NCBI RefSeq assembly: GCF_902652985.1 | Contig: NC_047021.1 | Span: 19,344,001-19,408,000 of the forward strand | Length of the DNA: 64,000 bases | DNA from: Pecten maximus | Lineage: Eukaryota | Direction of reading: 5' to 3' | Part shown: piece by piece, positions 4,901 to 62,900 of the stretch | Position numbering within the stretch: position 1 is the first letter of the stretch | Layout of the letters: the number at the start of each line of letters is the position of its first letter | Program-made: the position numbers and the translations under genes | The notes under the pieces: model-generated | Seen by the model: only the letters and a program-made list of their open reading frames with translations | What the model was told of the DNA's origin: nothing | Databases searched by the model: none

Positions 4901-5379
4901 AAACTACATACAAGTCTGGCCTTACTCTAAACTACATACAAGTCTGGCCATACTCTAAACTACATACAAGTCTGGCCATACTCTAAACTACATACAAGTC
5001 TGGCTATATTCTTAACTACATACAAGTCTGGCCATACTCTAAACTACATACAAGTCTGGCCATACTCTAAACTACATACAAGTCTGGCCATACACTAAAC
5101 TACATACAAGTCTGGCAATACTCTAAACTACGGTATATCAAAGTCTGGCCATACTCTTAATTACGGTACATCAAAGTCTGGCCATAGTCTAAACTTCATA
5201 CAAGTCTGGCCATACTCTTAATTACGGTACATCAAAGTCTGGCCATACTCTTAACTATATCCAAGCCTGGTCATACTCCTAACTACATCCAAGATTGGCT
5301 ATACTCTTAACTACATCCAAGATTGGCTATACTCTTAACTACATCCAAGTCTGGCTATACTCTTAACTACATCCAAGAT
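1911..5379. repeat. 28-bp minisatellite, consensus AAGTCTGGCCATACTCTAAACTACATAC, about 120 copies
   Basis: Direct 28-bp periodicity (e.g. 2471 to 2499). Homogeneous core, degenerate right edge. Confidence 0.98.
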
Positions 5380-18995: not shown

Positions 18996-20248
18996 CGAGG
19001 GATGATTGATATGTTGTGAGCCTCGTGTTGAAGGAGGTACTCAAGGATGTTCATTTTAAGTCCCACTATTCTCTTTGACTATATATGGCCGTGTACCCAC
19101 GGACTGGTCTTATTTTGTTAGTTTAAATCGAGGTAGCACTCTAAAGTAAACAAGACAAGCGGCTTTTGCGAAATGGACAAAATAGGTGAAAGAGCAGTGA
19201 TCCAATATTTGCATAAAAAGGTTTAACACCTAATGATATCAATAATGATATGGTAGCAACACTTAGGAGATGTGCCCCTTCATATGCTACAGTGAAAGGT
19301 GGGTTAGTGGAATTTAAGTGCGGCCGACAGAGCTTTGAGTATGACCCCCGTCCTGGAAGGCCTGTCAATGTTGCAGCCCCAGAAATGGTCAATAAAGTTC
19401 TTGATATTGTTATGACTGACAGACGAGGAAAGAGTACATTTCATTCTGACCGAGGATCTTGCATTGAGAAAGCTTTCGGCCCGATGGGTACCAGGACTTC
19501 TGACAGTAGATCAGAAGCACACAAGGCGTACATTATCGCGTGCTAATCTTAACCTTTTCTAGGAAGATCCTGCCAGCTTTCTCTAGACATTTGTCACTAT
19601 GGATGAAACATGGGTACATCATTTTACACCAGAGGCCAAGCAGCAATCGAAGCAATGGAAGCACCCTGGCTCTTCCAAGCCAAAGAAGGCAAAGACTGTT
19701 CGATCAGCTGGGAAGGCTGTGACCTCGGTTTTCTGGGATGCAGATGGTATTCCACTGATACAGTATCTCCAAAAGGGAGAAACAATCAATGGCACATACT
19801 ATGCCTCACTTCTAAGGCAGTTACGGGAAAATATTAAACTTAAGCGCCGCGGAAAGCTCACTAAAGGTGTGTTATTCCATCAGGACAATGCTCCTGTTCA
19901 CAATTCTGTCATTGCCATGGCTTCCATTCACGATGGTGGCTTTAAATTGATTGATCATCCGCCTTATTCACCTGTTCTCGATCCATCAGACATTCATCTA
20001 TTTCCGAAACCGAAAACAGCTATTTCAGGCACCACCTTTTAGTCCGATGATGACGTCATACATGCAGTGGATGACTTTCTGAACAGCCAAGAAAAGGAGT
20101 TCTATAAATGTGGCATTGAGGCCGCCCTTAAACACCGCTGGCGAAAGTTTATAAAAATTGAAGGGGACTATGTTAAAAAATAATACAGTATGTCAGGCAA
20201 AATTCAAATCCTTCAATATGAGGCTCACAACATATCAATCAGCCCTCG
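18996..20248 (+). mobile_element. Mariner (DD34D) transposon, both ends intact, probably irritans-type
   Basis: 29-bp TIRs CGAGGG(A/C)TGATTGATATGTTGTGAGCCTC with 1 mismatch. TA target duplication at 18994-95 and 20249-50. Length 1253 bp. Confidence 0.96.
19173..20183 (+). pseudogene. Mariner transposase pseudogene (frameshifts, stops, internal deletion)
   Basis: Motifs ARWVPGLLT, MDETWVHHF, HQDNAPVH and HPPYSPVLDPSD. There are 34 residues between the second and third catalytic Asp. The reading frame is broken into several ORFs. Confidence 0.95.
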
Positions 20249-22613: not shown

Positions 22614-23849
22614 CAGACATTTAAGTATGTGAAAGGCGCTGAGAGCGAGTGAGTTTGATATTGGTGTTAATATTGTTTATGTATATGGTGTAAACATTTA
22701 AAAAAAAATTAAAACAATATATATAAAAAGATAATAATTGACTTTAATGTATCATAGTAATCCATTACAAATCAAACATTGAGAAACTAGGTGTGATCTC
22801 TAATCAACACTTCCATGGCGTTACAGATTAAACCTTTAGGTGTGAAAGTTTACGTAGATAGCTACATACAAACATGATTTATATACGACACTGAAGGTGT
22901 TTAATCAGATACATAGTTCCCATGAGTGGTCTTCATATCCGTCCAATGACAAAAGGCACGTGCACGATGTTGTCACGAACGCCATATCTGACTCCCCACA
23001 GGGCAATGATGTCGGGTCCATATATAGTACAGTTGTTAGCGTGAAAAACGTTTGATGAATAGGAAGGATGAATTATCACAAAGAATCATTATCAGGCACG
23101 TCCTCCTTTACGGTACTAAATATATGGACAGGTATATGGACGACCGCACCAGGTCGACGAGTGCTCCTCAAGATTAAATGATTCTTTCCTCAGCAGTCAC
23201 CTGTATTTGTTTTACAGGCCTTTAGCACTAGAACTATGCAATACTTGCAGAGTGTGGAAAGGTAATTGGATGTTTTAGGACTCCGCTACCATATGGAAAT
23301 GATGTAACAATATGACACACTACAATTGTATATGAACAAAATAAGAGTTTACGTTATGACTAAGAAATATGATAAATCAACCATTATATCCGTATTAGAT
23401 ACTACAAGGCACATCGTATCTGACATACAAACACTACACAAATGTTCGGGTAACGCATGTGATTTCATGTAAAACACCTTTACCAATAGAAAGAGTAACA
23501 TCGTTTCTTAAAGTACGAGTATCAAAAAGCTATTGTCCGTCATTAAAAGGTCTCCCTCTTACACATTGGTAACGCCAGCATTTGACTGTCAACTTATTTT
23601 ACCATGTTTACCATACATGCACTATTTTAACACGGACGATGGGTCAAGCTTGGCCCATCACTACATCTTAAGCATTGAGATGAACGGAACATATAATTTC
23701 ATTTCCCCTTGTATTCACACAACTGATAGTATACGGCACCCGGATTATCCACTTAACTCTACTACTGATATCGTTTGAAATAATCTGACTGTCATTTGAA
23801 TAATCAACAGTCCAGTTCCGAAGATTTTCCCCTTCTGTATGTACAATGT

Positions 23850-23954
23850 ACATAGGAAAGGAATTAGTATAAGCTCTTAGCTTGTTTTCTTATCCCTTAT
23901 GAATGTATGTGTTTTGGGCAGTTTGTGTATTGAATAAAATATTGTTTAAACTAA
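23850..23954 (+). mobile_element. Extremely 5'-truncated CR1-type LINE 3' tail
   Basis: TAAGCTCTTAGCTTG stem-loop followed by AATAAAATATTGTTTAAACTAA, like mollusc CR1 3' ends. Confidence 0.45.
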
Positions 23955-25131
23955 CATCCTTGTACTAAGTTCCCAGTGATTCACCATGGCATTTCAGTGA
24001 CATATGCTATTTCCATACAACTGTCTGTACCAACCATGATCTCGGGAAAAGGACTTGATCACACCATGCCAAGTATAGTGTACTAACTAACAAGATTATC
24101 AGTGATCTAAAACAGATAGGGTTTCCATTTACATTCAATGACGTTGTCAACATCATCACATCACTGCAGGAACATCATTAATGGCGTGTATAGTTAGAAT
24201 AATGTATGCGGCGATTGTTTGGAATTTGTTTACAAAATCGAGATAATTCATTATTTACGTTTTAAGTTGAACTCGCAAATACCAAGTGTTATCACAACAC
24301 TGCCTTCCTCAACCCCCCTACCCAACCCCCCGCAAACAGATGAAAGTAATACTCATAGGGAAATAGAGATCGCCAATCATGTCTTGTAAAACATATGTAA
24401 ATACATACATAATCAAGAGATGCGGAAGTGGGAATGGGTTCTAACTTCTCCAAACCAAAGGACACAGTTGTTAGTGTACAAAGAAAACTACAGGTTAATG
24501 CATGGACGCTTACATTATACCAATAAAAATACTCAAAACACTTAGACAGTGTTTTAATGTGTACGAGACTGACGGTGTCATGTGTAGTTTCGGTTAACTA
24601 TGTGGGTGGCTGTACCCTTAGAATTTAGAGTTAATAGCCAGCTGCTGTAAATTCTTTGGTTGAATAAATGAAGCAAATCATATAAAATCAAACATATGAA
24701 TGCCTTCATCACATTGCTATTTGAGACATACAAAATGTGCGTAGATTGTTTTGAATACAGGTGTTATCTTACCTTTTTTGGCGAACTTGCATATCCATAT
24801 CCTTAACATACAAGTTTTACCCGAGAAACAATTGAACTGAAAATGGCGGGTATTGAGGTTAAAAAAGTGTTAAAGAGCTTCTAAGCAGTTAAGATAATCG
24901 AGCTATTGTATTAAGCCATTCTGGTATTAAAATAATCAGTCGACTACAGATGTAAAAATAACGACAGAAGGCTGAACACCTCATTTCATTCTCTTTGTAC
25001 CTATAAGTGGTCGTCATGCAAATCTTCTCTCTTTGTTCATGTTTTTCCCTCGGTTCGGGTTTGAGTTGGAATTACGGTTTTTTGTTGATGTCGGTACTCT
25101 TTGTAGAAAATGCAAGGACTAAATATCATGT

Positions 25132-26200
25132 TAGTATAAACTTTATTTCGTTTCATACAGAAGACAAAACACATTAGATATCAGGCTTCAGGACTGAACA
25201 GGATATGTTAAAGCTGTAAAGCTTATGTTTAACTACTTCTCATCAATTGATCTTTACAATATTGAGAAAGACCAGATCAGCAAAAAAACAAAAAGCGAAA
25301 GAAGATTTTATCAAATATATAATCTTTAAGTTTGATTCTTCTACTGTTTATACATATATAGGAGGGGGAGGGTGTGCAGGGAAGAGGGGACAAGTGAGTG
25401 TGGTGGATTTGCCACATCAATTAGTTATGGATGGTTTTAAACCTAATCAAAACTTTTATGATTATGCATGTCTTCAAATGGTGCAAAAACAGGATAACAA
25501 TGATTACATCCTCAGGTACTTGATTTAATTTCAAAGTGATGTTAGTATTAGATATGAAATCAGAAACGTTTAGTAGCTATGATAGATTTTTGAACACAGC
25601 TGTTACTTCACTATCTTCTCCGGGAGAAATGTCAACATCTCCAAATAGTAATATTCTGTCAGTAAGGTTAGAATAAGTTAGATTGAAGTAAACCGTGCGG
25701 AGATAATGGTAGAGTGGACATCGTAAAATAGATTGCGTGTAAGTTCGTTTCATTCGATAATCCGAATTAGCAGAGGGGATTACAATCAAGCCTTCGAGTA
25801 GAGGAAACTATTCAAGTAGTGACATTCCATCCTTGTATGTAGGACCTCGCCATGTCTATTTCCAGAGGAGAAGTATAGTGGAACTTTTTTAGAAGGTCCA
25901 TGTTAGTGTGTCTTAAGATTCCATAATGACGAATTCGCTTTAACATCGGAAGAAAGAGAGTTCCAGCAGGTTGAGACAACGGGGATGATATAGTTCTGAA
26001 ATAAAGAAGTATAACAAAGCAATGGAAGAAAGTTTTTCTCCATCTACAGTAGCATGAGTATGTACATCGGAACTATACCATGAACCATTTTATGAAATTG
26101 TATGAGTTTATGCGTCTGACGTCGTTTTCCAAGTGTTACCCACTCCGTTTCAATGTACATCAAAGATCTACTCGAAAGCTTTGTCCCTCCTGTTACAATT
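25132..26200 (-). mobile_element. CR1-clade LINE 3' fragment (decayed ORF2 C-terminus 26200-25560 plus 3' UTR)
   Basis: The minus strand reads VTGGTKLSSRSLMYIETEWVTLGKRRQTHKLIQFHKMVHGIVP...CWNSL...LRCPLY...ILLFGD...IATKRF*, the characteristic CR1 ORF2 tail. An AATAAA-containing end lies near 25132-25150. Confidence 0.88.
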
Positions 26201-28112
26201 AAAAAAACAATCTGGAGAAGGGTAAACGTGTGCTACTGTACCAAAGACACTAACATTGATGTAGATGGCTGTTTATACTGTGTAAGAACCGTATCAAGAA
26301 AACGAATTATAAGAATTTTAGAAAAATAAAGTAAACTCGATCTTAAGTTCAGAAACACATATACGGAGAGTCATTGGTAGTTATGACAGACTTTAACAAT
26401 GCGAAGTTCAATAAAGCATTTTATTTTATATCTTTTTAAGCTTGACACAATAAAGAATTTCATTGATTCATTACATTCCCACCAGCATTAAAGTAAAATA
26501 TGGCCTCGTATAATATAATCTGGTATAATACAAATGACAAGTTTAATTCGAAATTTCTTTGATAACGTTGAAATATGTATACAAAATGTACTAGTAGCTA
26601 ATAACTGATCCGTTTGAAACATTATACATTTATCTCTGTTCTTTTAAAACAAGTAGCTATACATATTGAATGTGATTGAATTCGACAGTTGATTCGTTGA
26701 AAGTATGTAAAGGGAGGTAAATCGTGTTTCCCTGTTTCGTTATTCTTCAATGGTAAGCTACAATAACTTAAAAGAACACTTCTCTCATCGATCTTTCTTT
26801 TTTGCTAATTAAATGGTATAAAGATACGTGTTCCCTTCACTTCTAAATAGAAGGCGTGTCGTGATGTCGCTGTGTGACACACAAAGAGAGTTTATACATA
26901 TTTATAATCTATCTTGTGCGTTACCTTTAATTAATCGTAGATTATACAATAGTTTATTACGGTTCAGAAAACTATTATTTATCAAAACGAATAAAACAAA
27001 TATAAATTAACCACAGATATTAATGCTAACACAGGCAGCTTCAAACGCATCCGCCTCCAGACATTTGAAAAAAAAACTACAACTGAACAACGACAGCTAT
27101 AGGGTTGTATGCAGATAAAGTCATGGACAGAAAAAAACAGGACTAAAATAGACAAAACAAACAAACGTTTTCCGTTAACAAGAATGAAAATAACTTCGAC
27201 GTACAGTAGAGATCGTGATTTTAAGAAACCTATCTGGTAGAGCCTATGGCGATAAAGTCTGTTGTTTACGGGTAAACGATAACAGATGATACGGTAAGTC
27301 TGAAAACAAAACCTTCATCGAAAAGTACGGAGGGTCGGCCGTGGGCTACCGGACCAGTGAGAATCTAAAATTCAACATATCACAATTTTAAGGTCGCATC
27401 ATACGCCTCAGTCATATTAGATCTTACGGCAAAGGGGGGAGAACGTTACGTTTGCAGAAGATGAAAGCTCTGAAACGCATATTCTTTCGTGACTACTTCA
27501 AAATTAAATGGGGCGTTTTAAGATGAAAATTAATCCACGGCTAGGTATGATAGCATGAACTGCAAAGATGTACGATTCATAACATCTCGATAACACAGGT
27601 CTGACACAGGTACAGCGTTATCAGTGTGAAGCAGCCGTATGGGAATCAACTTTTGTGGTTTTGAAATACAACTATACAGTATGTATACTTTTAAAACTAA
27701 TTTGGACCCACTCGTATCATCTATTGTGTCACCCATCTGATACGGATGATATTGCTGAAATACGTATTCTATCTATTGTAGGTTAGCCTGGACTAGATGA
27801 GAATGATAATAAGGATGTGTCGATGGCTCGACCACAAGTCCTCGTGTACACTGACGAAGTAAATCAAAAATATATATAGCAAATGAAATTTATAATCTCC
27901 GTGTATTAGAAATATATCAATTTAGCTTTACCTCCACTTCAAATATCAAAACAATAACATTGTCCTATAAATAAGACAAAATCATCCTACAGGATTCTGT
28001 CCTTTTCAGTCTTCAATTAGAATATGGCTAAGGGCATGTTGGTTTAGGAATTAATGTGCATCTTATTGGTAGTAAATAAGAACTTTTTGCTCAAAACATA
28101 TCGATTCCATTT

Positions 28113-28790
28113 ATGTTTGACCGAGCTGAGTCCATAGTTACAGAAGCGGGGGACCTGGAAGATGAAAGACCAAAATGTGAGCCAAGCCCATAATGACTGT
28201 GATTATAGCAACCGAACGTTGTGACTCTGGAAGGTCAGACTCAAGATCAGCAACACAACATCCAAACAACCTACCATCAGGCAAGAATCCGAATGATCTA
28301 AGGGTTCTGTAATATATATCAAGGGCATTTCCAAAACCCTGTGTTGAAATCTCACAAGATTCAGTGTTTAAAACCATCCAACAAATTAGGACAGACTCTT
28401 GTGAGACTCAATGACAAAACACCCCAAAAAGACCTAAAGACCTAGTCGGCCCGGTGTACTATGTCAATGTCAGGGCAAGACCATCGACGGAAAACAGTGT
28501 CAATAGACATATTTTGGCGAGACGGAGAGAAGACTTAATAATCGCTTCCTTGGGCGCAACCAAGCTCAGTTTAATCCTCTGAAGTGACCTAACATATCCA
28601 ACGTGAATCCCCAGGTCCGTCGGTAGGAGCCGACACTCTTCCAGGGGTCTATGACTCGCTCCTGAGGTCACCTGTCCGACAGGTCACGTGACCACAGGTA
28701 AATCCACCAGGCGAGACTCAGTCCTACTGAGGAAGATCACAGTAGTGGTCGAAATGTGAGCAACAGTTTAAAATCCTTTCTTTGACATGT
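28113..28790 (+). mobile_element. Penelope/Poseidon-type retroelement 3' fragment: decayed RT thumb, linker and GIY-YIG endonuclease, plus pLTR
   Basis: Across frameshifts: FDRAESIVTEAGDLEDE; YIKGISKTL; FKPSNKLGQTLVRLNDKTP; GPVYY; QCQ*TYFGETERRLNNRF (GIY-YIG YIGET-R-L-R motif); LPGVYDSLLRS. Confidence 0.85.
28720..28770 (+). ncRNA. Degenerate minimal hammerhead ribozyme of the Penelope pLTR
   Basis: CTGAGGA-A-GATCAC-AGTA-GTGGTC-GAAA: core boxes with a paired stem II directly after the GIY-YIG ORF. Stem III and the cleavage site appear mutated. Confidence 0.6.
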
Positions 28791-29363
28791 TGGCTTGTTT
28801 TAGCTGAAAAACAAAGACATTGACATCATTGGAAGTCATACGATGAAGAAACTAATTAAAACTTTGGTGTTTGAAGTAGAATGTAGAAATATTTAACAAT
28901 CAATTTGGGGTGTAGGACTTGAAGCAGCCTCTACCGCAATAAGATATTTAATTGTGCGATACTCGTAAGAGTGTGTAGTCGAACATAAAACAGGGAATGA
29001 TTGACCTGTGTGGCATTATAGGTTTTGAGGGGACGTAACATGACAGACTGGGTCGATTATTTTACGTCAAACCCAGCTTGTGCCTCATTATAAATCATAA
29101 ATATACACGTAAATGTAAGGAGAAAATGCAATGTTAAAATATAAGTGTTTCTGGTGTTCCAATGAGTAGCAAATCAACTTCAGTTTACTAGATGACACGG
29201 ACGCGAAACGGTCAAGACACTCAGTTTATATCAATAATACACAGGTACATGACACATTCAAATACAAATTTATAGCCAAAAAATAGAAAATCTGAAACAA
29301 CTCGCTCGGAAACGGGAATAGCTAAATATACACAGCCATTGTGATGTCTTCCTGAAAGATAAC

Positions 29364-29485: not shown

Positions 29486-31117
29486 AGCAAGGGAGTGTTT
29501 TTCGGCAAGGTAGTAGGTTACTGGTGAACGATGTTGTTAGTTGATGCAGGTTATCATTAGATACTGAAATAAACTAATGGACAAAACTGCATGGTTATAT
29601 ACATGTAATTCGTCTTCAAGGACTTGTGATGATAGAGGCCAAAAGTGTGGAATCTCACAGAAAAATAAAAAAGGGCAATAGCAATCACAAGAGGGAAACC
29701 AACCCAGTTATTTCCCCTATTTGTATAGCGGATACGTGCATAATCTGTATCGGTATCACTATTTATAAAACGTGCCATGCAGGTAACAACAAACCAACTG
29801 AATTAAATCAAATTATCACAAACAAAGATTTTGATAATGAAAATATTGATATATATATATCTCAACTTTCCATACATTGGTTGTTTTAAATAGCAGTTTG
29901 TGTTAGGTTGTGTAAGCCATAAATTTGTCGGGTCGTGAGTTCTGAGCTGGACATGGCTGGGAGCTCATGGCCTCCGTACACACTGAACGCGACCTTAGGT
30001 AGAGATAAGAACTCTAATGAAGCCTACGTGATTGACATTGAATGATGCCGAGGTTTGATTGGGACGAAATAACAAGACACGGGCCATCTTTCCTTCCATA
30101 ATTCAGTCTGAAGTGGGCACGTCGAATTCGGAGATATCTAGAAAATCTTGAAAGCTGTAATATGTGATAATACGATAGTTATATGAACGCGTTTTACCTG
30201 TCTTATCTCCTAGTGTGGGAGACAAAAACAAGCCTGCCCTAGTGTTCTGGGCAGGAACATATATCAACCAGTGTGTCGGAGCATGCATTGCAATACATAA
30301 AATGTACATCATTCACTAAAGTCATATTCTGCACATGCTTAATCAAAAATAATCTGATAGCTCCGTCGCTCCTTACCACTGAGAAATGTTGGCTTTCTCC
30401 ATTGTCCCGATAGGGAGCACATCAAACTACTCAATGTTACAAAGATTATAGGCAGTTTAAAAATGATTTATTTCACAGAGTGAACAGATGTACTTTTAGA
30501 ATTCTCCAGATGTGGCGGGATAGGCTTTGGTTCTGTCAGCAATGCAGGGATATTGCACATGAATTACAGTAATTTACACAGGTATCTTAGTATACAATTA
30601 AACGGCAGATTGCGTAAAGAATTAAATGCTCCATGTACGCTTTTCACACAGAAATCACTAGATGGACATGAAAGATTATGAAAAGACAAGATCAAACAGA
30701 AAATCCAGCGTTTCATAACCAGCTGTTCTATACATGTAACCAGCAATTCTATTCACACTAAGTGTCATGGTTTATTTATGAGGATATAGCCGATTATAGG
30801 TTGGTGTATTTTTTTTACGGTTTTTATATTTATCATTAATGCTAATGTATTTCTTACTCGGTAGAATATACGACTTTTCGGAAGATAATTGAAATAAATG
30901 ACAATTACTGCATTTGAGGCTCATTTTAATTAGGGAATGATGAAATTGCGGAAAATACATCACTCAACTAAATCTATCTCATTATACAAAGCTTTGCCGG
31001 CATTGTCTGGCTCGTTTTTTGTCTTTGGCGCGTAACAGCTCTCTAAGGTATATAATTCTAAGTTTGTAGATGTCACTCCATCAAATATATTAGTTGTCAT
31101 CTAATTCTTTATTTATT

Positions 31118-44697: not shown

Positions 44698-47600
44698 ATA
44701 TGGCAGGCATTGGACTGTTCGTTATATAACTGGCGTTTGAATGTTCGTTATATGGCAGGCATTGGACTGTTCGTTATATAACTGGCGGTTTGATTGTTCG
44801 TTATATAACTGGCGGTTTGACTGTTCGTTATATAACTGGCGGTTCGACTGTTCGTTATATGGCAGGCATTGGACTGTTCGTTATATAACTGGCGGTTTGA
44901 TTGTTCGTTATATGGCAGGCATTGGCCTGTTCGTTATATAACTGGCGGTTCGACTGTTCGTTATATAACTGGCGGTTCGACTGTTCGTTATATAACTGGC
45001 GGTTCGACTGTTCGCTATATGGCTGGCGTTTGACTGTTCGTTATATAACTTGCGGTTGACTGTTCGTTATATAACTGGCGGTTTGACTGTTCGTTATATA
45101 ACTGGCGGTTTGACTGTTCGTTATATAACTTGCGGTTTGACTGTTCGTTATATAACTGGCGGTTCGACTGTTCGTTATATGGCAGGCATTGGACTGTTCG
45201 TTATATAACTGGCGGTTTGACTGTTCGTTATATAACTGGCGGTTTGACTGTTCGTTATATAACTGACGGTTTGACTGTTCGTTATATGGCAGGCATTGGA
45301 CTGTTCGTTATATAACTGACGGTTTGACTGTTCGTTATATGGCAGGCATTGGACTGTTCGTTATATAACTGGCGGTTTGACTGTTCGTTATATAACTGAC
45401 GGTTTGACTGTTCGTTATATAACTTGCGGTTTGACTGTTCGTTATATAACTGGCGGTTCGACTGTTCGTTATATGGCAGGCATTGGACTGTTCGTTATAT
45501 AACTGGCGGTTTGATTGTTCGTTATATGGCAGGCATTGGACTGTTCGTTATATAACTGGCGGTTCGACTGTTCGTTATATAACTGGCGGTTCGACTGTTC
45601 GTTATATAACTGGCGGTTCGACTGTTCGCTATATGGCTGGCGTTTGACTGCTCGTTATATACTGGCGATTCGACTGTTCGTTATATAACTTGCGGTTTGA
45701 CTGTTCGTTATATAACTGGCGGTTTGACTGTTCGTTATATAACTGGCGGTTTGACTGTTCGTTATATAACTGGCGGTTTGGCTGTTCGCTATATGGCTGG
45801 CGTTTGACTGTTCGTTATATAACTGACGGTTTGATTGTTCGTTATATAACTTGCGGTTTGACTGTTCGTTATATAACTGACGGTTTGACTGTTCGTTATA
45901 TAACTTGCGGTTTGATTGTTCGTTATATAACTGGCGGTTTGACTGTTCGTTATATAACTGGCGGTTCGACTGTTCGTTATATAACTTGCGGTTTGATTGT
46001 TCGTTATATAACTGGCGGTTTGACTGTTCGTTATATAACTTGCGGTTCGACTGTTCGTTATATAACTGGCGGTTCGACTGTTCGTTATATAACTGGCGGT
46101 TTGACTGTTCGCTATATGGCTGGCGTTTGACTGCTCGTTATATACTGGCGATTCGACTGTTCGTTATATAACTTGCGGTTTGACTGTTCGTTATATAACT
46201 GGCGGTTTGACTGTTCGTTATATAACTGGCGGTTTGACTGTTCGTTATATAACTGGCGGTTTGGCTGTTCGCTATATGGCTGGCGTTTGACTGTTCGTTA
46301 TATAACTGGCGATTCGACTGTTCGTTATATAACTGGCGGTTTGACTGTTCGTTATATAACTGGCGGTTTGACTGTTCGTTATATAACTGACGGTTTGACT
46401 GTTCGTTATATAACTTGCGGTTTGACTGTTCGTTATATAACTGGCGGTTCGACTGTTCGTTATATGGCAGGCATTGGACTGTTCGTTATATAACTGGCGG
46501 TTTGATTGTTCGTTATATGGCAGGCATTGGACTGTTCGTTATATAACTGGCGGTTCGACTGTTCGTTATATAACTGGCGGTTCGACTGTTCGTTATATAA
46601 CTGGCGGTTCGACTGTTCGCTATATGGCTGGCGTTTGACTGCTCGTTATATACTGGCGATTCGACTGTTCGTTATATAACTTGCGGTTTGACTGTTCGTT
46701 ATATAACTGGCGGTTTGACTGTTCGTTATATAACTGGCGGTTTGACTGTTCGTTATATAACTGGCGGTTTGGCTGTTCGCTATATGGCTGGCGTTTGACT
46801 GTTCGTTATATAACTGACGGTTTGATTGTTCGTTATATAACTTGCGGTTTGACTGTTCGTTATATAACTGACGGTTTGACTGTTCGTTATATAACTTGCG
46901 GTTTGATTGTTCGTTATATAACTGGCGGTTTGACTGTTCGTTATATAACTGGCGGTTCGACTGTTCGTTATATAACTTGCGGTTTGATTGTTCGTTATAT
47001 AACTGGCGGTTTGACTGTTCGTTATATAACTTGCGGTTCGACTGTTCGTTATATAACTGGCGGTTCGACTGTTCGTTATATAACTGGCGGTTGACTGTTC
47101 GCTATATAGCTGGCGTTTGACTTGCTCGATTATAACTGGCGTTGACTGTTCGTTATATAACTGGCGGTTTGACTGTTCGTATATAACTGGCGGTTTGACT
47201 GTTCGTTATATAACTGGCGGTTTGACTGTTCGTTATCTGCTTGAGTCGTTTTATGGCTTGCTGTTCGCTATATGGCTGGCGTTTGACTGTTCGTTATATA
47301 ACTGGCGTTGCGCTATAGCGTATGTCGTTATAACTGGCGTTGACTGTTCGTTATAACTGGCGTTTGACTGTTCGTTATATAACTGGCGGTTTGACTGTTC
47401 GTTATATAACTGGCGGTTTGACTGTTCGTTATATAACTGGCGGTTTGACTGTTTGTTCTATAACTGGCGGTTTGACTGTTCGTTATATAACTGGCGGTTT
47501 GACTGTTCGTTATATAACTGGCGGTTTGACTGTTCGTTATATAACTGGCGTTTGACTGTTCGTTATATAACTGGCGATTTGACTGTTCGTTATATAACTG

Positions 47601-50600
47601 GCGATTTGACTGTTCGTTATATAACTGGCGGTTTGACTGTTCGCTATATGGCTGGCGTTTGACTGCTCGTTATATACTGGCGATTTGACTGTTCGTTATA
47701 TAACTTGCGGTTTGACTGTTCGTTTATATACTGGCGGTTTGACTGTTCGTTATATAACTGGCGGTTTGACTGTTCGTTATATAACTGGCGGTTTGGCTGT
47801 TCGCTATATGGCTGGCGTTTGACTGTTCGTTATATAACTGGCGATTCGACTGTTCGTTATATAACTGGCGGTTTGACTGTTCGTTATATAACTGGCGGTG
47901 TGACTGTTCGTTAAATAACTGGCGGTTTGACTGTTCGTTATATAATTGGCGGTTTGGCTGTTCGCTATATGGCTGGCGTTTGACTGTTCGTTCTTTAACT
48001 GGCGGTTTGGCTGTTCGCTATATGGCTGGCGTTTGACTGTTCGTTATATAACTGGCGATTCGACTGTTCGTTATATAACTGGCGGTTTGACTGTTCGTTA
48101 TATAACTTGCGGTTTGATTGTTCGTTATATAACTGGCGGTTTGACTGTTCGTTATATAACTTGCGGTTCGACTGTTCGTTATATAACTGGCGGTTCGACT
48201 GTTCGTTATATAACTGGCGGTTTGACTGTTCGCTATATGGCTGGCGTTTGACTGCTCGTTATATACTGGCGATTCGACTGTTCGTTATATAACTTGCGGT
48301 TTGACTGTTCGTTATATAACTGGCGGTTTGACTGTTCGTTATATAACTGGCGGTTTGACTGTTCGTTATATAACTGGCGGTTTGGCTGTTCGCTATATGG
48401 CTGGCGTTTGACTGTTCGTTATATAACTGGCGATTCGACTGTTCGTTATATAACTGGCGGTTTGACTGTTCGTTATATAACTGGCGGTGTGACTGTTCGT
48501 TAAATAACTGGCGGTTTGACTGTTCGTTATATAATTGGCGGTTTGGCTCTTCGTTATATAACTGGCGGTTCGACTGTTCGTTATATAACTGGCGGTTTGA
48601 CTGTTCGCTATATGGCAGGCATTGGACTGTTCGTTATATAACTGGCGGTTTGACTGTTCGTTATATAATTGGCGGTTTGACTGTTCGCTATATGGCTGGC
48701 GTTTGACTGTTCGTTATATAGCTGGCGTTTGGCTATTCGTTATAAAGCTGGCGTTTGACTGTTCGTTATATAGCTGGCGTTTGACTTTTCGATATATAAC
48801 TGGCGATTCGACTGTTCGTTATATAACTGGCGGTTTGACTGTTCGTTATATAACTGGCGGTGTGACTGTTCGTTAAATAACTGGCGGTTTGACTGTTCGT
48901 TATATAATTGGCGGTTTGGCTGTTCGCTATATGGCTGGCGTTTGACTGTTCGTTCTTTAACTGGCGGTTTGGCTGTTCGCTATATGGCTGGCGTTTGACT
49001 GTTCGTTATATAACTGGCGATTCGACTGTTCGTTATATAACTGGCGGTTTGACTGTTCGTTATATAACTGGCGGTTTGACTGTTCGTTATATAACTGGCG
49101 GTTTGACTGTTCGCTATATGGCTGGCGTTTGACTGTTCGTTATATAATTGGCGGTTTGACTGTTCGTTATATAACTGGCGGTTTGACTGTTTGTTCTATA
49201 ACTGGCGGTTTGACTGATCGTTATATAACTGTCGTTTGACTGTTCGTTATATAACTGGCGGTTTGACTGTTCGGTATATAACTGGCGTTTGACTGTTCGT
49301 TATATAACTGACGGTTTGACTGTTCGCTATATGGCTGGCGTTTGACTGTTCGTTATATAATTGGCGGTTTGACTGTTCGCTATATGGCTGGCGTTTGACT
49401 GTTTGTTATATAGCTGGCGTTTGGCTATTCGTTATAAAGCTGGCGTTTGACTGTTCGTTATATAGCTGGCGTTTGACTTTTCGATATATAACTGGTGGTA
49501 TGACTATTCGTTATATAACTGGCGATTTGATTGTTCGTAATATAACTGACGATTTGACTGTTCGTTATATAACTGGCGGTTTGACTGTTCGCTATATGGC
49601 TGGCGTTTGACTGTTCGTTATATAATTGGCGGTTTGACTGTTCGCTATATGGCTGGCGTTTGACTGTTTGTTATATAGATGGCGTTTGGCTATTCGTTAT
49701 AAAGCTGGCGTTTGACTGTTCGTTATATAGCTGGCGTTTGACTTTTCGATATATAACTGGTGGTATGACTATTCGTTATATAACTGGCGATTTGATTGTT
49801 CGTAATATAACTGGCGATTTGACTGTTCGTTATATAACTGGCGGTTTGACTGTTCGCTATATGGCTGGCGTTTGACTGTTCGTTATATAATTGGCGGTTT
49901 GACTGTTCGCTATATGGCTGGCGTTTGACTGTTTGTTATATAGCTGGCGGTTTGGCTATTCGTTATATGGCTGGCGTTTGACTGTTCGTTATATAATTGG
50001 CGGTTTGACTGTTCGCTATATGGCTGGCGTTTGACTGTTCGTTATATAGCTGGCGTTTGACTTTTCGATATATAACTGGCGGTTTGACTGTTCGCTATAT
50101 GGCTGGCGTTTGACTGTTCGTTATATAATTGGCGGTTTGACTGTTCGCTATATGGCTGGCGTTTGACTGTTCGCTATAAAAGTGGCGGTTTGACTGTTCG
50201 TTATATCACTAGCGTTTGACTATTCTTTATATAGCTTTTGTTATATAGCTGGCGGTATGACTATTCGTTATATAGCTGACGGTATGACTATTCGTTATAT
50301 ACAAAAATGTAGCTGACGGTATGACTATTCGTTATATAACTGGCGGTATGACTATTCGCTATATAGCTGACGGTTTGAATATTTGTTATATAGCTGACGA
50401 TATGACTATTCGCTATGTAGCTGAAGATATAAATATTCGCTATATGACTGGCTGTTTGACTTTTCGTTATATAGCTGGCGGTTTGACTATTCGTTATATA
50501 ACTGGCGGTATGACTATTCGCTATACAGCTGACGGTATGATTATTCGTTATAATGCTGGCGGTATAGCTATTCGTTATATAGCTGGCGGTTTGACTATTC

Positions 50601-51765
50601 GTTATATAGCTGGCGTTTTACTTTTCGTTATACATGTATAGCTGGCGGTTTGACTGTTCGCTATATGGCTGGCGATTTAACTATTTGTTATATAACTGGC
50701 GGTTTGACTGTTCGCTATATGGCTGGCGTTTGACTGTTCGTTATATGGCTGGCGATTTGACTGTTCGCTATTTAGCTTGCGTTTGACTGTTCGTTATACA
50801 AATGTATTGATGATGTTTCACTGTTCGCTATATGGCTTGCAATTTGACTGTTAGTTATATAACTGGCGGTTCAACTGTTCACAATATTGCTGGCGGTTTG
50901 AGTATTCGTTATATTACTGACAGTTTGACTGTTGGTTATATAACTGGTTGTTTGATTATTCGCTATATTGCTGGCGTTTGACTGTTCGCTATATAATTGG
51001 CAGTTTGACTTTTCGTTATATCACTAGCGTTTGACTATTCGTTATTTAGCTTTCGCTATATAGCTGGCGTTATGACTTTTCCTTACATAGCTGACGGTTT
51101 GACTATTGGTTATATAGCTGGCGTTTGACTTTTCGTTATATAGCTGGCGGTATGCCTACAGAAATGTATTCGTTATACAGCTCGCGGTATGACTATTCGT
51201 TATATAGCTGACGGTATGACTAATCGTTATATAGCTGGCGGTTTGGCTATTCGTTATATAGCTGGCGTTTGACTTTTCGTTATATAGCTGGCGGTTTGAC
51301 TATTCGTTATACATGTATAGCTGGCGGTTTGACTTTTCGTTATATAGCTGAAGGTATGATTATTCGTTATATAGCTGGCGGTTTGACTTTTCGTTATAAA
51401 GCTGGCGGTTTGACTATTCGTTATATAGCTGGCGGTTTGACTTTTCGTTATATAGCTGGCGATTTGAATTTTCGTTATATAGCTGACGGTATGATTATCC
51501 GTTATATAGTAGGCGGTAGGACTTTTCATGATATAACTGGCGGTATGACTATTCGTTATATAGCTGACGTTATGACTTTTAGTTATATAGCTGACGGTAT
51601 GCCTATTCGTTATATAGCTGGCGGTTTGACTATTCGTTATATAGCTAGCGGTATGACTATTCTTTATATAGCTGGCGGTTTTACTATTCGTTATATACTG
51701 TAGCTGGCGATATGACCATTCGTTATACAGCTGTCGATTTGCTTATTCGTTATTCAGCTCGCGGT
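44698..51765. repeat. 27-bp minisatellite TATAACTGGCGGTTTGACTGTTCGTTA (with 26-bp variants), about 260 copies, with higher-order duplications
   Basis: 27-bp (9-codon) periodicity. A ~991-bp block is repeated (45690 vs 46681). Units diverge progressively after about 50200. Confidence 0.98.
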
Positions 51766-51864
51766 TTTTCTCTGGGTACTCCGGTTTTCCTTCTTCTCCA
51801 AAACCTTGCACATCCTTAAATGACCATGGCTGTTAATAGTACGTTAAACAAAATAAACCAACCA
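51761..51864 (+). mobile_element. 3' half of a V-domain SINE fused to the end of the 27-bp array
   Basis: GGTTTTTCTCTGGGTACTCCGGTTTTCCTTCTTCTCCAAAACC matches the reverse complement of 56548-56595. The tail CCTTAAATGACCATGGCTGTTAATAGTACGTTAAAC follows. Confidence 0.85.
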
Positions 51865-53399
51865 ATGACAAAAAATATTATTATTATTTTGCCTACTCTA
51901 TATATAAGCATCTGATTTGACATGAATAGAACATGAATCGTAGTGTTACCCTCTAACGTTGGAGATTCCTGATTAAATATTCCTCACTCGGTGTCTTGAA
52001 AAAAAACCAATTATGGTTATGGGAATTCAGGATGATTACAGTAGCGTCGCGGAAATCATTTTTGACAAAAACAGCGATGTTTTATCTTCAGTGCTGTGTT
52101 ACTGTTCTGATTTAATGTTATAAAATATTATGAAAATCGGCTTCCCGAATATAATTTTCAAGCAATGGTACATATGTGTAAATTTGCGCTCCAGTAGTAC
52201 AGTAATATATTGCCTCCACAGAAAGGCCTTTCTGTGTAGACTCGGTTTAATGTGATGCACATGCTATATTAAAAGTAATTTTTTACTTTGCTTTACTTTA
52301 TGATTTATATAATGAGGATTCTTTAAGTCATTAAGATTTTTAATTTGTAAGATTAATGCATACCGATTCATATTGTATTTTTTTTCAATAAAAAGCCACA
52401 ATACTGATTTATGTTCCGAATTATGTGAAATCGCTTTAAGGAATATAATTCACCACCATATTTAATGAAGAACGCGCTCGTTTATTACAGAATAACAAAC
52501 CAGTATTCACAACATATTTGATTTATTTTGCAATTAACTTTGACAGATAATTTTAGCTAAGCTTCTTTTTAGATATTCGTAACTACTTCATTGCTGCATA
52601 TTAGATTTAAACTAGTGATGAAATATATTACATGATTTCCTTTTGTCTGGTCATCGTCATGTTTCACGTGAGAAGTGGTTAATTATCCCCTTGTGAGGCA
52701 AGAAGATACATATACAAACCAAACGACATCCTCAGCTCTACCGACTTTATTGATGATCATATTATCGTATAACTTCATACACACGCAACAATCATCTCAT
52801 GTACGCGTTTCAACCGCCCAGGTCAAAAATGAGGTCGCTATTATTATAAATATAGCATCGATCTACAATAATGATTTTTTAGTTAGTCTCCCCTTGCGAG
52901 TTCTTTCAAACGGAGATAAAATACACTTTTGATTTGCCGCTTGCTAGTGTAAGAACAATAAAATACGTTTTCAGCAGATGAAGGTTAAATTTCAGAGTTG
53001 ATAACTCGGCGCGGGGAGGGCAAATCAGAACTCGAAAACTGCGTATTGTCCTAAAACTTCATACACTTACAACGACCAACTGTTATTCAAGATAACACAG
53101 CTCCGTATTTTCGATGCACAAGTACCCCTGTCATTGATTACCGTTATTCAAAACACATTGCTTCCAAAATTTTAATTACAAGAAAACGCTACAACAGGTG
53201 AATTTGAATGACCTTCGAGCAGTTCCTCCTGTAGCATGTTCTCATTCTACTTCTCAATACATCCACGGTCCAGTTGGATAAGTCGTAATTGGCTATCATC
53301 GCATTTTCCCCTACGATAAGCTACGCGAACTGTTCATAAAGGGTCCGAATAAGCGAGAGACTCCTTCTAGTAAATGGAACATGAATCTCAAGACACTCA

Positions 53400-59900: not shown

Positions 59901-62900
59901 ACATCGAACTCCCGATATCTCAGATGGAGCTCGCGCTTGCTCAGTGGATAGAACATCGAACTCCCGATATCTCAGATGGAGCTTGCGTTTGCTCAGTAGA
60001 TAGAACATCGAACTCCCGATATCTCAGATAGAGATCTCGCCAGTTCAGTAGATAGAACATCGAACTCCCGATATCTCAGATGGAGGCCGCGCTAGTTCAG
60101 TAGATAGAATATCGAACTCCCGATATCTCAGATGGAGATCGCGATAGTTCAGTAGATAGAACGTCGAACTCCCGATATCTCAGATGGAGACCGCGCTAGT
60201 TCAGTCGATAGAATATCGAACTCCCGATATCTCAGATGGAGATCGCGCTAGTTCAGTAGATAGAACATCGAACTCCCGATATCTCAGATGGAGATCGCGC
60301 TAGTTCAGTAGATAGAACATCGAACTCCCGATATCTCAGATGGAGATCGCGCTTGTTCAGTAGATAGAACATCGAACTCCCGATATCTCAGATGGAGACC
60401 GCGCTAGTTCAGTCGATAGAACATCTGACTCTTGGTATCTCAGATGGAGATCGCGCTAGTTCAGTAGATAGAACATCTAACTCCCGATATCTCAGATGGA
60501 GATCGCGCTTGTTCAGTAGATAGAACATCGAACTCCCGATATCTCAGATGGAGACCGCGCTAGTTCAGTCGATAGAACATCTGACTCTTGGTATCTCAGA
60601 TGGAGATCGCGCTAGTTCAGTAGATAGAACATCTAACTCTTGATATCTCAGATGGAGATCGCGCTAGTTCAGTAGATAGAACATCGAACTCCCGATATCT
60701 CAGATGGAGATCGAGCTTGTTCAGTAGATAGAACATCTAACTCTTGATATCTCAGATGTAGATCGCACTAGTTCAGTAGATAGAACATCGAACTCCCAAT
60801 ATCTCAGATGGAGATCGCGATAGTTCAGTAGATAGAACATCGAACTCCCGATATCTCAGATGGAGATCGGGCTTGTTCAGTAGATAGAACATCTAACTCT
60901 TGATATCTCAGATGGAGATCGCGCTAGTTCAGTAGATAGAACATCAAACTCCCGATATCTCAGATGGAGATCGCGATAGTTCAGTAGATAGAACATCGAA
61001 CTCCCGATATCTCAGATGGAGATCGCACTAGTTCAGTAGATAGAACATCGAACTCCCGATATCTCAGATGGAGATCGCGATAGTTCAGTAGATAGAACAT
61101 CGAACTCCCGGTATCTCAGATGGAGATCGCACTAGTTCAGTAGATAGAACATCGAACTCCCGATATCTCAGATGGAGATCGCGCCAGTTCAATAGATAGA
61201 ACATCGAACTCCCGATATACATGTATCAAATGGAGATCGCACTAGTTCAATAGATAGAACATCAAACTCCCGATATCTCAGATGGAGATCGCACTAGTTC
61301 AGTAGATAGAACATCGAACTTCCGATATCTCAGATGTAGGTCGCGCTAGTTCAGTAGATAGAACATCAAACTCATGACATTGTAGATTGAGACCGCGCTT
61401 TTTCAGTCGATAGAACATCAAACTCCCGATATCTCAGATGGAGACCGCGCTAGTTCAGTCGATAGAACATCGAACTCCCGATATCTCTGATGGAGATCGC
61501 GCCAGTTCAATAGATAGAACATCGAACTCCCGATATACATGTATCAAATGGAGATCGCAGTAGTTCAATAGATAGAACATCAAACTCCCGATATCTCAGA
61601 TGGAGACCGCGCTAGTTCAGTCGATAGAACATCGAACTCCCGATATCTCAGATGGAGATCGCGATAGTTCAGTAGATAGAACGTCGAACTCCCGATATCT
61701 CAGATGGAGACCGCGCTAGTTCAGTAGATAGAACATCGAACTCCCGATATCTCAGATGGAGATCGCGCTAGTTCAGTAGATAGAACATCGAACTCCCGAT
61801 ATCTCAGATGGATATCGTGCTAGTTCAGTAGATAGAACATCGAACTCCCGATATCTCAGATGGAGATCGAGCTTGTTCAGTAGATAGAACATCTAACTCT
61901 TGATATCTCAGATGTAGATCGCACTAGTTCAGTAGATAGAACATCGAACTCCCAATATCTCAGATGGAGATCACGATAGTTCAGTAGATAGAACATCGAA
62001 CTCCCGATATCTCAGATGGAGATCGGGCTTGTTCAGTAGATAGAACATCTAACTCTTGATATCTCAGATGGAGATCGCGCTAGTTCAGTAGATAGAACAT
62101 CAAACTCCCGATATCTCAGTTGGAGCTCGCGCTTGCTCAGTAGATAGAACATCAAACTCCCGATATCTCAGATGGATATCGTGCTTGTTCAGTAGATAGA
62201 ACGTCGACCTCCCGATATCTCAGATGGAGATCGGGCTTATTCAGTAGATAGAACATCGAACTCCCGATATCTCAGATGGAGATCGCGCTAGTTCAGTAGA
62301 TAGAACATCGAACTCCCGATATCTCAGATGGAGACAGCGCTTGCTCAGTAAATAGAACATCGAACTCCCGGTATCTCAGATGGAGATCGCACTAGTTCAG
62401 TAGATAGAACATCGAACTCCCGATATCTCAGATGGAGATCGCGCCAGTTCAATAGATAGAACATCGAACTCCCGATATCTCAGATGGAGACAGCGCTTGC
62501 TCAGTAAATAGAACATCGAACTCCCGGTATCTCAGATGGAGATCGCACTAGTTCAGTAGATAGAACATCGAACTCCCGATATCTCAGATGGAGATCGCAC
62601 TAGTTCAGTAGATAGAACATCGAACTCCCGATATCTCAGATGGAGATCGCACTAGTTCAGTAGATAGAACATCGAACTTCTGATATCTCAGATGTAGGTC
62701 GCGCTAGTTCAGTAGATAGAACATCAAACTCATGACATTGTAGATTGAGACCGCGCTTCTTCAGTCGATAGATCATCAAACTCCCGATATCTCAGATGGA
62801 GACCGCGCTAGTTCAGTCGATAGAACATCGAACTCCCGATATACATGTATCAAATGGAGATCGCACTAGTTCAATAGATAGAACATCAAACTCCCGATAT

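Follow-up and report, generated by a model that had tools for sequence, protein, structure and literature searches.

The footprints of Tc1/mariner transposons consist of the first or last 2–4 bases of the element between two TA dinucleotides and arise by end joining, and Sleeping Beauty leaves TACAGTA or TACTGTA (PMC6943129). Breaks made by Tc1 carry non-complementary 2-base 3′ overhangs (PMC4490562). For Tc1 of C. elegans the +4 products TACATA or TATGTA make up 78% of somatic cases (10.1101/2022.08.01.502254), and empty sites are made by end joining (NHEJ) in the soma and by homologous or theta-mediated repair in the germline (PMC13148408, PMC4490562). Passer, a pogo element, has footprints of 0–4 bp (PMC9976928). 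In rice, excisions detected by comparing genomes often contain filler DNA; they mostly delete flanking sequence (mean approximately 18 bp), their fillers average 13 bp and 8 of 94 were perfect (PMC4423477). Full-text literature searches, outside supplements and subscription papers, listed no account of genome-wide TACATGTA scars (the CATG form) in bivalves or other animals, and neither the scale nor the A-filled +6 series described below was found in print there.

We analyzed a window of 64,000 nucleotides of the Pecten maximus genome (contig NC_047021.1, positions 19,344,001 to 19,408,000), in which long, mutually unrelated minisatellites are unusually frequent between 1911 and 63866 (periods of 20–53 bp, several of 1–7 kb). 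One of these is a 27-bp array of approximately 261 units (44712–51760; no strand is assigned to the arrays and their insertions) with a palindromic TTATATAA/CTATATAG core. Wrap-around unit-by-unit alignment showed that the array is homogenized up to approximately position 50190, with 0.11 differences to the nearest unit, and old and diverged from 50191 onwards (50191–51760; 1.57 kb, 221 TA sites, mean of 1.65 differences). A preliminary description of the window had listed six short insertions in five forms near the end of the array, each with a duplicated TA. The alignment recovered all six, as assembled; adjoining 27-bp units show the uninserted sequence, so that the ancestral state can be read from the neighbors, and TA is present twice instead of once in six of six sites. 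TA-CATG-TA (+6) occurs at the TA in the middle of the unit's palindrome at 50631–50638 and at the same unit position at 51310–51317. The other insertions are TA-CAAAAATG-TA (+10, 50300–50311), likely an excision scar with A filler; TA-CAAATG-TA (+8, 50797–50806), read from the unit alignment; TA-CAGAAATG-TA (+10, 51157–51168), at a different TA of the unit (GCCTA/TTCG); and TA-CTG-TA (+5, 51696–51702). The last of these has the exact footprint sequence of Sleeping Beauty, where TA is likewise duplicated around the terminal bases of a CAG…CTG element (PMC6943129).

The two CATG sites match exactly over 7 bases to the left and over 25 bases rightward from the first base of the scar. As they share unit position and flanks, a single event may have been duplicated along with its unit, and the six sites probably represent five events. 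We consider it likely, on the strength of the sequence comparisons given below, that these insertions were left behind by the excision of cut-and-paste transposons that target TA and belong to the IS630-Tc1-mariner/pogo group, an assignment made at the level of the group. All insertions lie in the diverged end of the array, and no such insertion was found among the 570 TA sites of the homogenized 5.48 kb (Fisher p = 0.0016 vs. the diverged end). A genome-wide pattern across the TA of the 27-mer retrieved inserted forms in no other array (three matches, all here). The old end, TATA-rich and unhomogenized, would have kept its scars; the difference in age is measured, its causal role presumed. 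Five events per 221 TA sites compare with 0.9 expected at the genome rate of approximately 0.4% per TA (p approximately 0.002, uncorrected for the way in which the cluster was chosen), an excess that counts against excision. The denser cluster may be explained by the age of the segment, a preference for TATA or local hopping; no convincing CA…TG-ended donor for such hopping was found within the 64-kb window.

Similar insertions were present in other tandem arrays. In a census of 251 arrays (324,910 of 1,264,000 bases scanned; insertions of 4–20 bp), 13 of 72 rows showed a duplicated TA around a C…G core, which after merging of two row pairs from the same arrays correspond to 11 events. Eight of these lie outside the 27-bp array, with the cores CTG, CGG, CATG (three times), CATTG, CATATTG and CATAAATG. 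The remaining rows comprised one TA-CA-TA, five TA-duplicating insertions with another core, 18 exact or near tandem duplications and 35 other insertions. Outside the 27-bp array, the C…G core was thus found in 8 of 14 TA-duplicating non-tandem insertions (p approximately 3 × 10^-9 against base frequencies of 0.18 × 0.18). The census is conservative, as its strict flank filter lost two known sites of the 27-bp array (50797 and 51696). Within the window, TA-CATG-TA in a 52-bp array (61218–61225) was copied to 61536 and 62842 (three copies), and TA-CGG-TA in a 28-bp array (2968–2974) is also found at 5129, 5162 and 5223 (four copies); the latter fits a pogo-type family of the P. maximus genome, which has CCG…CGG ends. 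TA-GATC-TA was seen once as an insertion, in a further array locus (L230).

Directly adjoining the 27-bp array lies the 3′ portion of a tRNA-type SINE of high copy number (51763–51866, + strand). A pattern search of the genome found 4,974 perfect matches to a 31-base segment of this SINE, and the family served as a genome-wide test substrate. Exhaustive genome-wide pattern searches, in which the inserted letters were left free, showed TA-C…G-TA in 7 of 24 insertions of 4–14 bases at the SINE site AATA/GG, the remainder being mostly tandem duplications. The cores were CTG, CATG (three times), CAATG, CAATTG and CATATG, and a left-anchored pattern (20 matches) added CTATG, CACTG and one extra CATG, giving 10 scars. 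Such insertions were rarer at ACTA/GC (2 of 57 short insertions) and GGTA/CT (2 of 24), and at a non-TA control position of the SINE none of 18 insertions was of this type. All-against-all alignment of dispersed repeats gave a weaker signal, with 3 of 32 insertions of at least 4 bp, and 3 of 8 TA-duplicating non-tandem insertions, in the scar class. A 12-base SINE-flank pattern was rejected as too short, its control count being half of the real count (100 of 241 matches listed).

The SINE sites also showed other recurrent insertions. At ACTA/GC, 29 of 57 insertions consist of nothing but an additional TA, compared with 2 of 24 at GGTA/CT. They could mark a SINE subfamily, or else a family preferring CTAG whose scar is a clean target duplication. 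The same four bases, creating TGCA, account for 8 of 18 insertions at the control position and could reflect a subfamily, or a palindromic insertion as a second recurrent type. A longer insert at a SINE TA (G000:C2:13273128-13273166), with TA duplicated, starts with C and ends with CATG, and is possibly a scar with captured filler. TA-ACAGT-TA was seen once as an insertion at a dispersed-repeat locus (L072).

We then drew 100 stretches of 10 kb at random, masked their tandem repeats and compared the word counts in the remaining 733,376 bases with a third-order Markov expectation. The 8-mer TACATGTA (CATG), known as a Tc1/Tc3 footprint, was found 161 times vs. 42 expected (3.8-fold) and ranks first of 136 in its class, which bears out the enrichment against a Markov background that the preliminary description had proposed as a check; it favors R-TA-Y flanks. 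TACAGTA/TACTGTA (CAG) ranks first of 32 TA-N3-TA words (255 vs. 182), TACAATGTA (CAATG) first of 512 (60 vs. 26), and TACAAATGTA (CAAATG) was found 31 times vs. 10 expected. The +4 words TACATA/TATGTA did not emerge as the main product in this sample, at 1118 vs. 973 expected (1.15-fold) and not above TA-GA-TA. Among 16 two-base end types, CA alone was enriched throughout the series without filler, with A and with AA; raised without filler only were GG (21 vs. 4.6), CT (20 vs. 10) and TA (303 vs. 131; simple repeats). The GG word TAGGCCTA (TA-GGCC-TA, 4.6-fold) was also seen once within an insertion (L152:1509). Two-base fillers were AA/TT at 31 sites, AT at 5 and TA at 3, and this dominance of AA/TT suggests that bases are added to one end. 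The excess over the six scar words is 257, or 350 per Mb and approximately 0.4% of TA sites. Extrapolation to the genome (918 Mb in 19 large contigs) gives roughly 2–3 × 10^5 scars, the range depending on whether masked DNA is counted.

A bias for CA..TG content at TA beyond slippage is strong in three settings: SINE sites, arrays and random-DNA words. It bears on the possibility that the insertions arose by local slippage, fold-back or templated repair in the palindromic TATATA core, with no transposon involved. Several units would suit this explanation: TATACA variants are found at 50511, 51153 and 51713, TATACAGCT variants are present, TATACA copied in inverted orientation would yield TATACATGTATA, and TACTGTA resembles an imperfect duplication of TAGCTG; exact tandem duplications are, moreover, the commonest insertions at SINE sites. 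However, the CATG core is also found in flanks that offer no template (AATA/GG of the SINE, GATA/TC of the 52-mer), the insertion at 51157 lies at a TA without CA nearby, and the palindromic words with the same core in other flanks (AACATGTT, GACATGTC and ATCATGAT) were not enriched in the random-DNA sample. As the core is independent of the flank, being identical in the SINE, the 27-mer, the 52-mer and two further arrays, this explanation is largely refuted and we regard it as very improbable. Hairpin-type palindromic scars of hAT or RAG depend on the flanking sequence; they were rejected here, as the core does not follow the flank.

Candidate source elements are present in the genome. Pfam searches gave at least 150 Tc1/mariner-type and at least 151 pogo-type DDE-domain matches, many with open frames. 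TA-flanked terminal repeats were present in 35 of 81 loci examined, and 37 distinct C…G-ended TA-flanked elements were delimited in the fetched loci. They include CAGAGA…TCTCTG Tc1 elements of approximately 1,365 bp with an intact 347-aa frame, one group of which is 99.8–99.9% identical; a Tc1 family with a 339-aa frame, 13 copies of which are 99.6–99.9% identical and carry TACTG…CAGTA in a TATA context; CAGTCT and CAGCGC elements; and CAGTG-ended and CCGTA-ended pogo elements. For one CAGAGA Tc1 copy, empty paralogues of the host repeat carry a single TA, revealing the target duplication. The scar cores start with CA, CAG or C and end with TG, CTG or G, which are the terminal bases of elements with terminal inverted repeats, the internal A/T filler being extra. 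The preliminary description had proposed that a very active CA...TG-ended element, or an unknown TA-targeted insertion process, marked this DNA without leaving full copies. Cut-and-paste with such ends is supported in that candidate CAG…CTG-ended, TA-duplicating families exist in the assembly; full copies of suitable elements are found elsewhere in the genome, and probably more than one family contributes to the scars.

The only clear TA-flanked element of the window is a mariner with CGAG…CTCG ends (18996–20248, + strand). Its expected scars are not enriched (TA-CGA-TA, 95 vs. 91 expected; TA-CGCG-TA, 4 vs. 3), so that it is not the source, in line with the preliminary description. The CAGAGA Tc1 family often lies in CTA contexts, unlike the R-TA-Y preference of TACATGTA, which counts against excision, as does the lack of a GG…CC-ended TA-flanked element to match TA-GGCC-TA among the elements found. 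The 339-aa Tc1 family (L124–L137, L241) is very young, with a 1,536-bp core and many dozens of equal-scoring matches, and is always found as TATA-CTG…CAG-TATA. From one empty paralogue, it seems that TA forms the end of the element proper or that the target duplication is longer than TA. An 825-bp inverted-repeat element (L051:6104-6928) has the ends TACAGTA-CGAGG, a mariner-like end after a footprint-like word on both sides. A 396-bp element inside a SINE copy (L205, G000:C17:32266983-32270029) is bounded by perfect terminal inverted repeats; its target duplication of 10 bp has a Mutator-like length.

The preliminary description had read the insertions as DNA-transposon excision footprints, and the SINE, array, word-count and element-end tests all support excision. 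In the proposed sequence of events, an element would insert at TA and duplicate it, a step that empty paralogous sites show for one Tc1 family, and its excision would leave each flank with 2–3 bases of the element's termini, CA(G) and (C)TG, as is established for Tc1 and Sleeping Beauty. Pairing of 3-base overhangs would give the +5 forms TA-CAG-TA or TA-CTG-TA, and fill-in of 2-base overhangs followed by blunt ligation the +6 form TA-CATG-TA. If a few A/T were added to one end before ligation, the +7 to +10 forms would result (CA-A-TG, CA-AA-TG, CA-AAAA-TG and CAG-AAA-TG), the A-rich filler presumably coming from repair synthesis. As the scars are inherited, end joining would take place in cells that reach the germline, in a lineage leading to offspring. 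The scars, small and nearly neutral, would remain in place as the elements move elsewhere or disappear.

As with Sleeping Beauty, whose footprint word tops the TA-N3-TA ranking of the random sample, the scars carry the terminal bases of CAG…CTG elements; unlike there, the +6 CATG and A/T-filled forms are more enriched than +5, and the P. maximus scars are inherited genome-wide, whereas Sleeping Beauty footprints were seen in an assay. Like C. elegans Tc1, the scars have CA on each end, and blunt fill-in of the Tc1 overhangs would give TA-CATG-TA (PMC4490562). In the worm, +4 dominates in the soma and the germline shows deletions, whereas clean +6 and A-filled forms are inherited here; that the dominant +6 form differs from the main products published for worm Tc1 and Sleeping Beauty counts against excision. 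Pogo transposons such as Passer also leave short terminal residues (PMC9976928), and P. maximus has CAG- and CCG-ended pogo elements, although this comparison is one of footprint lengths, not sequences, and no family is tied to CATG. As in rice, excisions are read from sequence comparison and filler DNA is present; unlike in rice, both TAs are kept, the cores are stereotyped and the frequency is high enough to skew word counts (PMC4423477). Our scar census detects TA-retaining scars and would miss those with deletions.

Most likely, we are dealing with an A-filled, inherited, high-abundance variant of a known mechanism, and the surprise is limited in that the mechanism underneath is textbook. 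If excision is the origin, short words like TACATGTA would be a fossil record of cut-and-paste transposition and not regulatory motifs; germline excision rates and repair-pathway choice would be measurable from a single assembly, and the scars would indicate that, unlike in the worm germline, end joining with added A/T is heritable. Tandem arrays and SINEs allow this record to be read with its ancestral state. More tentatively, and with the odds against it, the bivalve germline as such may combine clean end joining with template-free A/T addition, leaving a few hundred thousand TA-CA(W)nTG-TA scars, about fifty times the surviving elements; in the boldest form of this proposal, CATG would be the work of a TA-targeting enzyme, host-encoded or domesticated, that acts without a full element. 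If true, this would be a major unrecognized insertion signature and a direct count of past jumps.

An element-free TA-targeted process in general, such as aborted integration, a domesticated transposase inserting and removing ends, or a nuclease and polymerase writing CA(W)nTG into TA breaks, is in our view unlikely. It would account for the ratio of scars to recognized intact TA-flanked C…G elements, which reaches approximately 50 to 1 (an excess of 257 vs. at least 5 elements, defined by our own end patterns, in a random 1 Mb), for the dominance of +6 and A-filled forms over the published main footprints and for the GGCC class without a matching element among those found. In addition, no occupied allele was found at the scarred sites examined: at the SINE site AATA/GG with its 10 scars, none of the 6 matches inspected (of 20) contained a TA-flanked element, one of the six being an inverted-repeat element with a 10-bp duplication. 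At 50:1, however, 10 scars would be accompanied by only approximately 0.2 occupied copies, so that this absence is uninformative, and the cores match the ends of resident elements (CAG/CTG, CCG/CGG and the two bases CA/TG). We know of no enzyme that writes such TA inserts without a full element. At the host site of a CAG-ended Tc1, the first 100 of 265 copies showed no CA…TG scar and one TA-ACGT-TA.

Assembly or read errors in the tandem array are the least probable explanation, to which we give hardly any weight. A run of array units at 47092–47341 does contain many clustered small deletions, like uncorrected long-read error, while the rest of the array is clean. Cores of fixed sequence with a duplicated TA are untypical of error, though, and scar-bearing units were propagated with their arrays, as in the 52-mer (three copies) and the 28-mer (four copies). 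In 1.6 kb of unique DNA (29500–31100), no scar-like word differs among the contigs of three samples, one of which may be the source of the assembly; the scar-like words at 29600, 30294, 30565 and 30731 are unchanged in all three and are real. Comparison of 22650–29350 with contigs of four runs gave indel tables crowded by repeats (12 of 55 rows listed). Contig C395 was rejected as an alternative haplotype of C8, since the alignment was confined to a repeat with a Tc1 that both contigs have in common. At 30340, the contig of one sample joins SINE sequence, which suggests a polymorphic SINE insertion.
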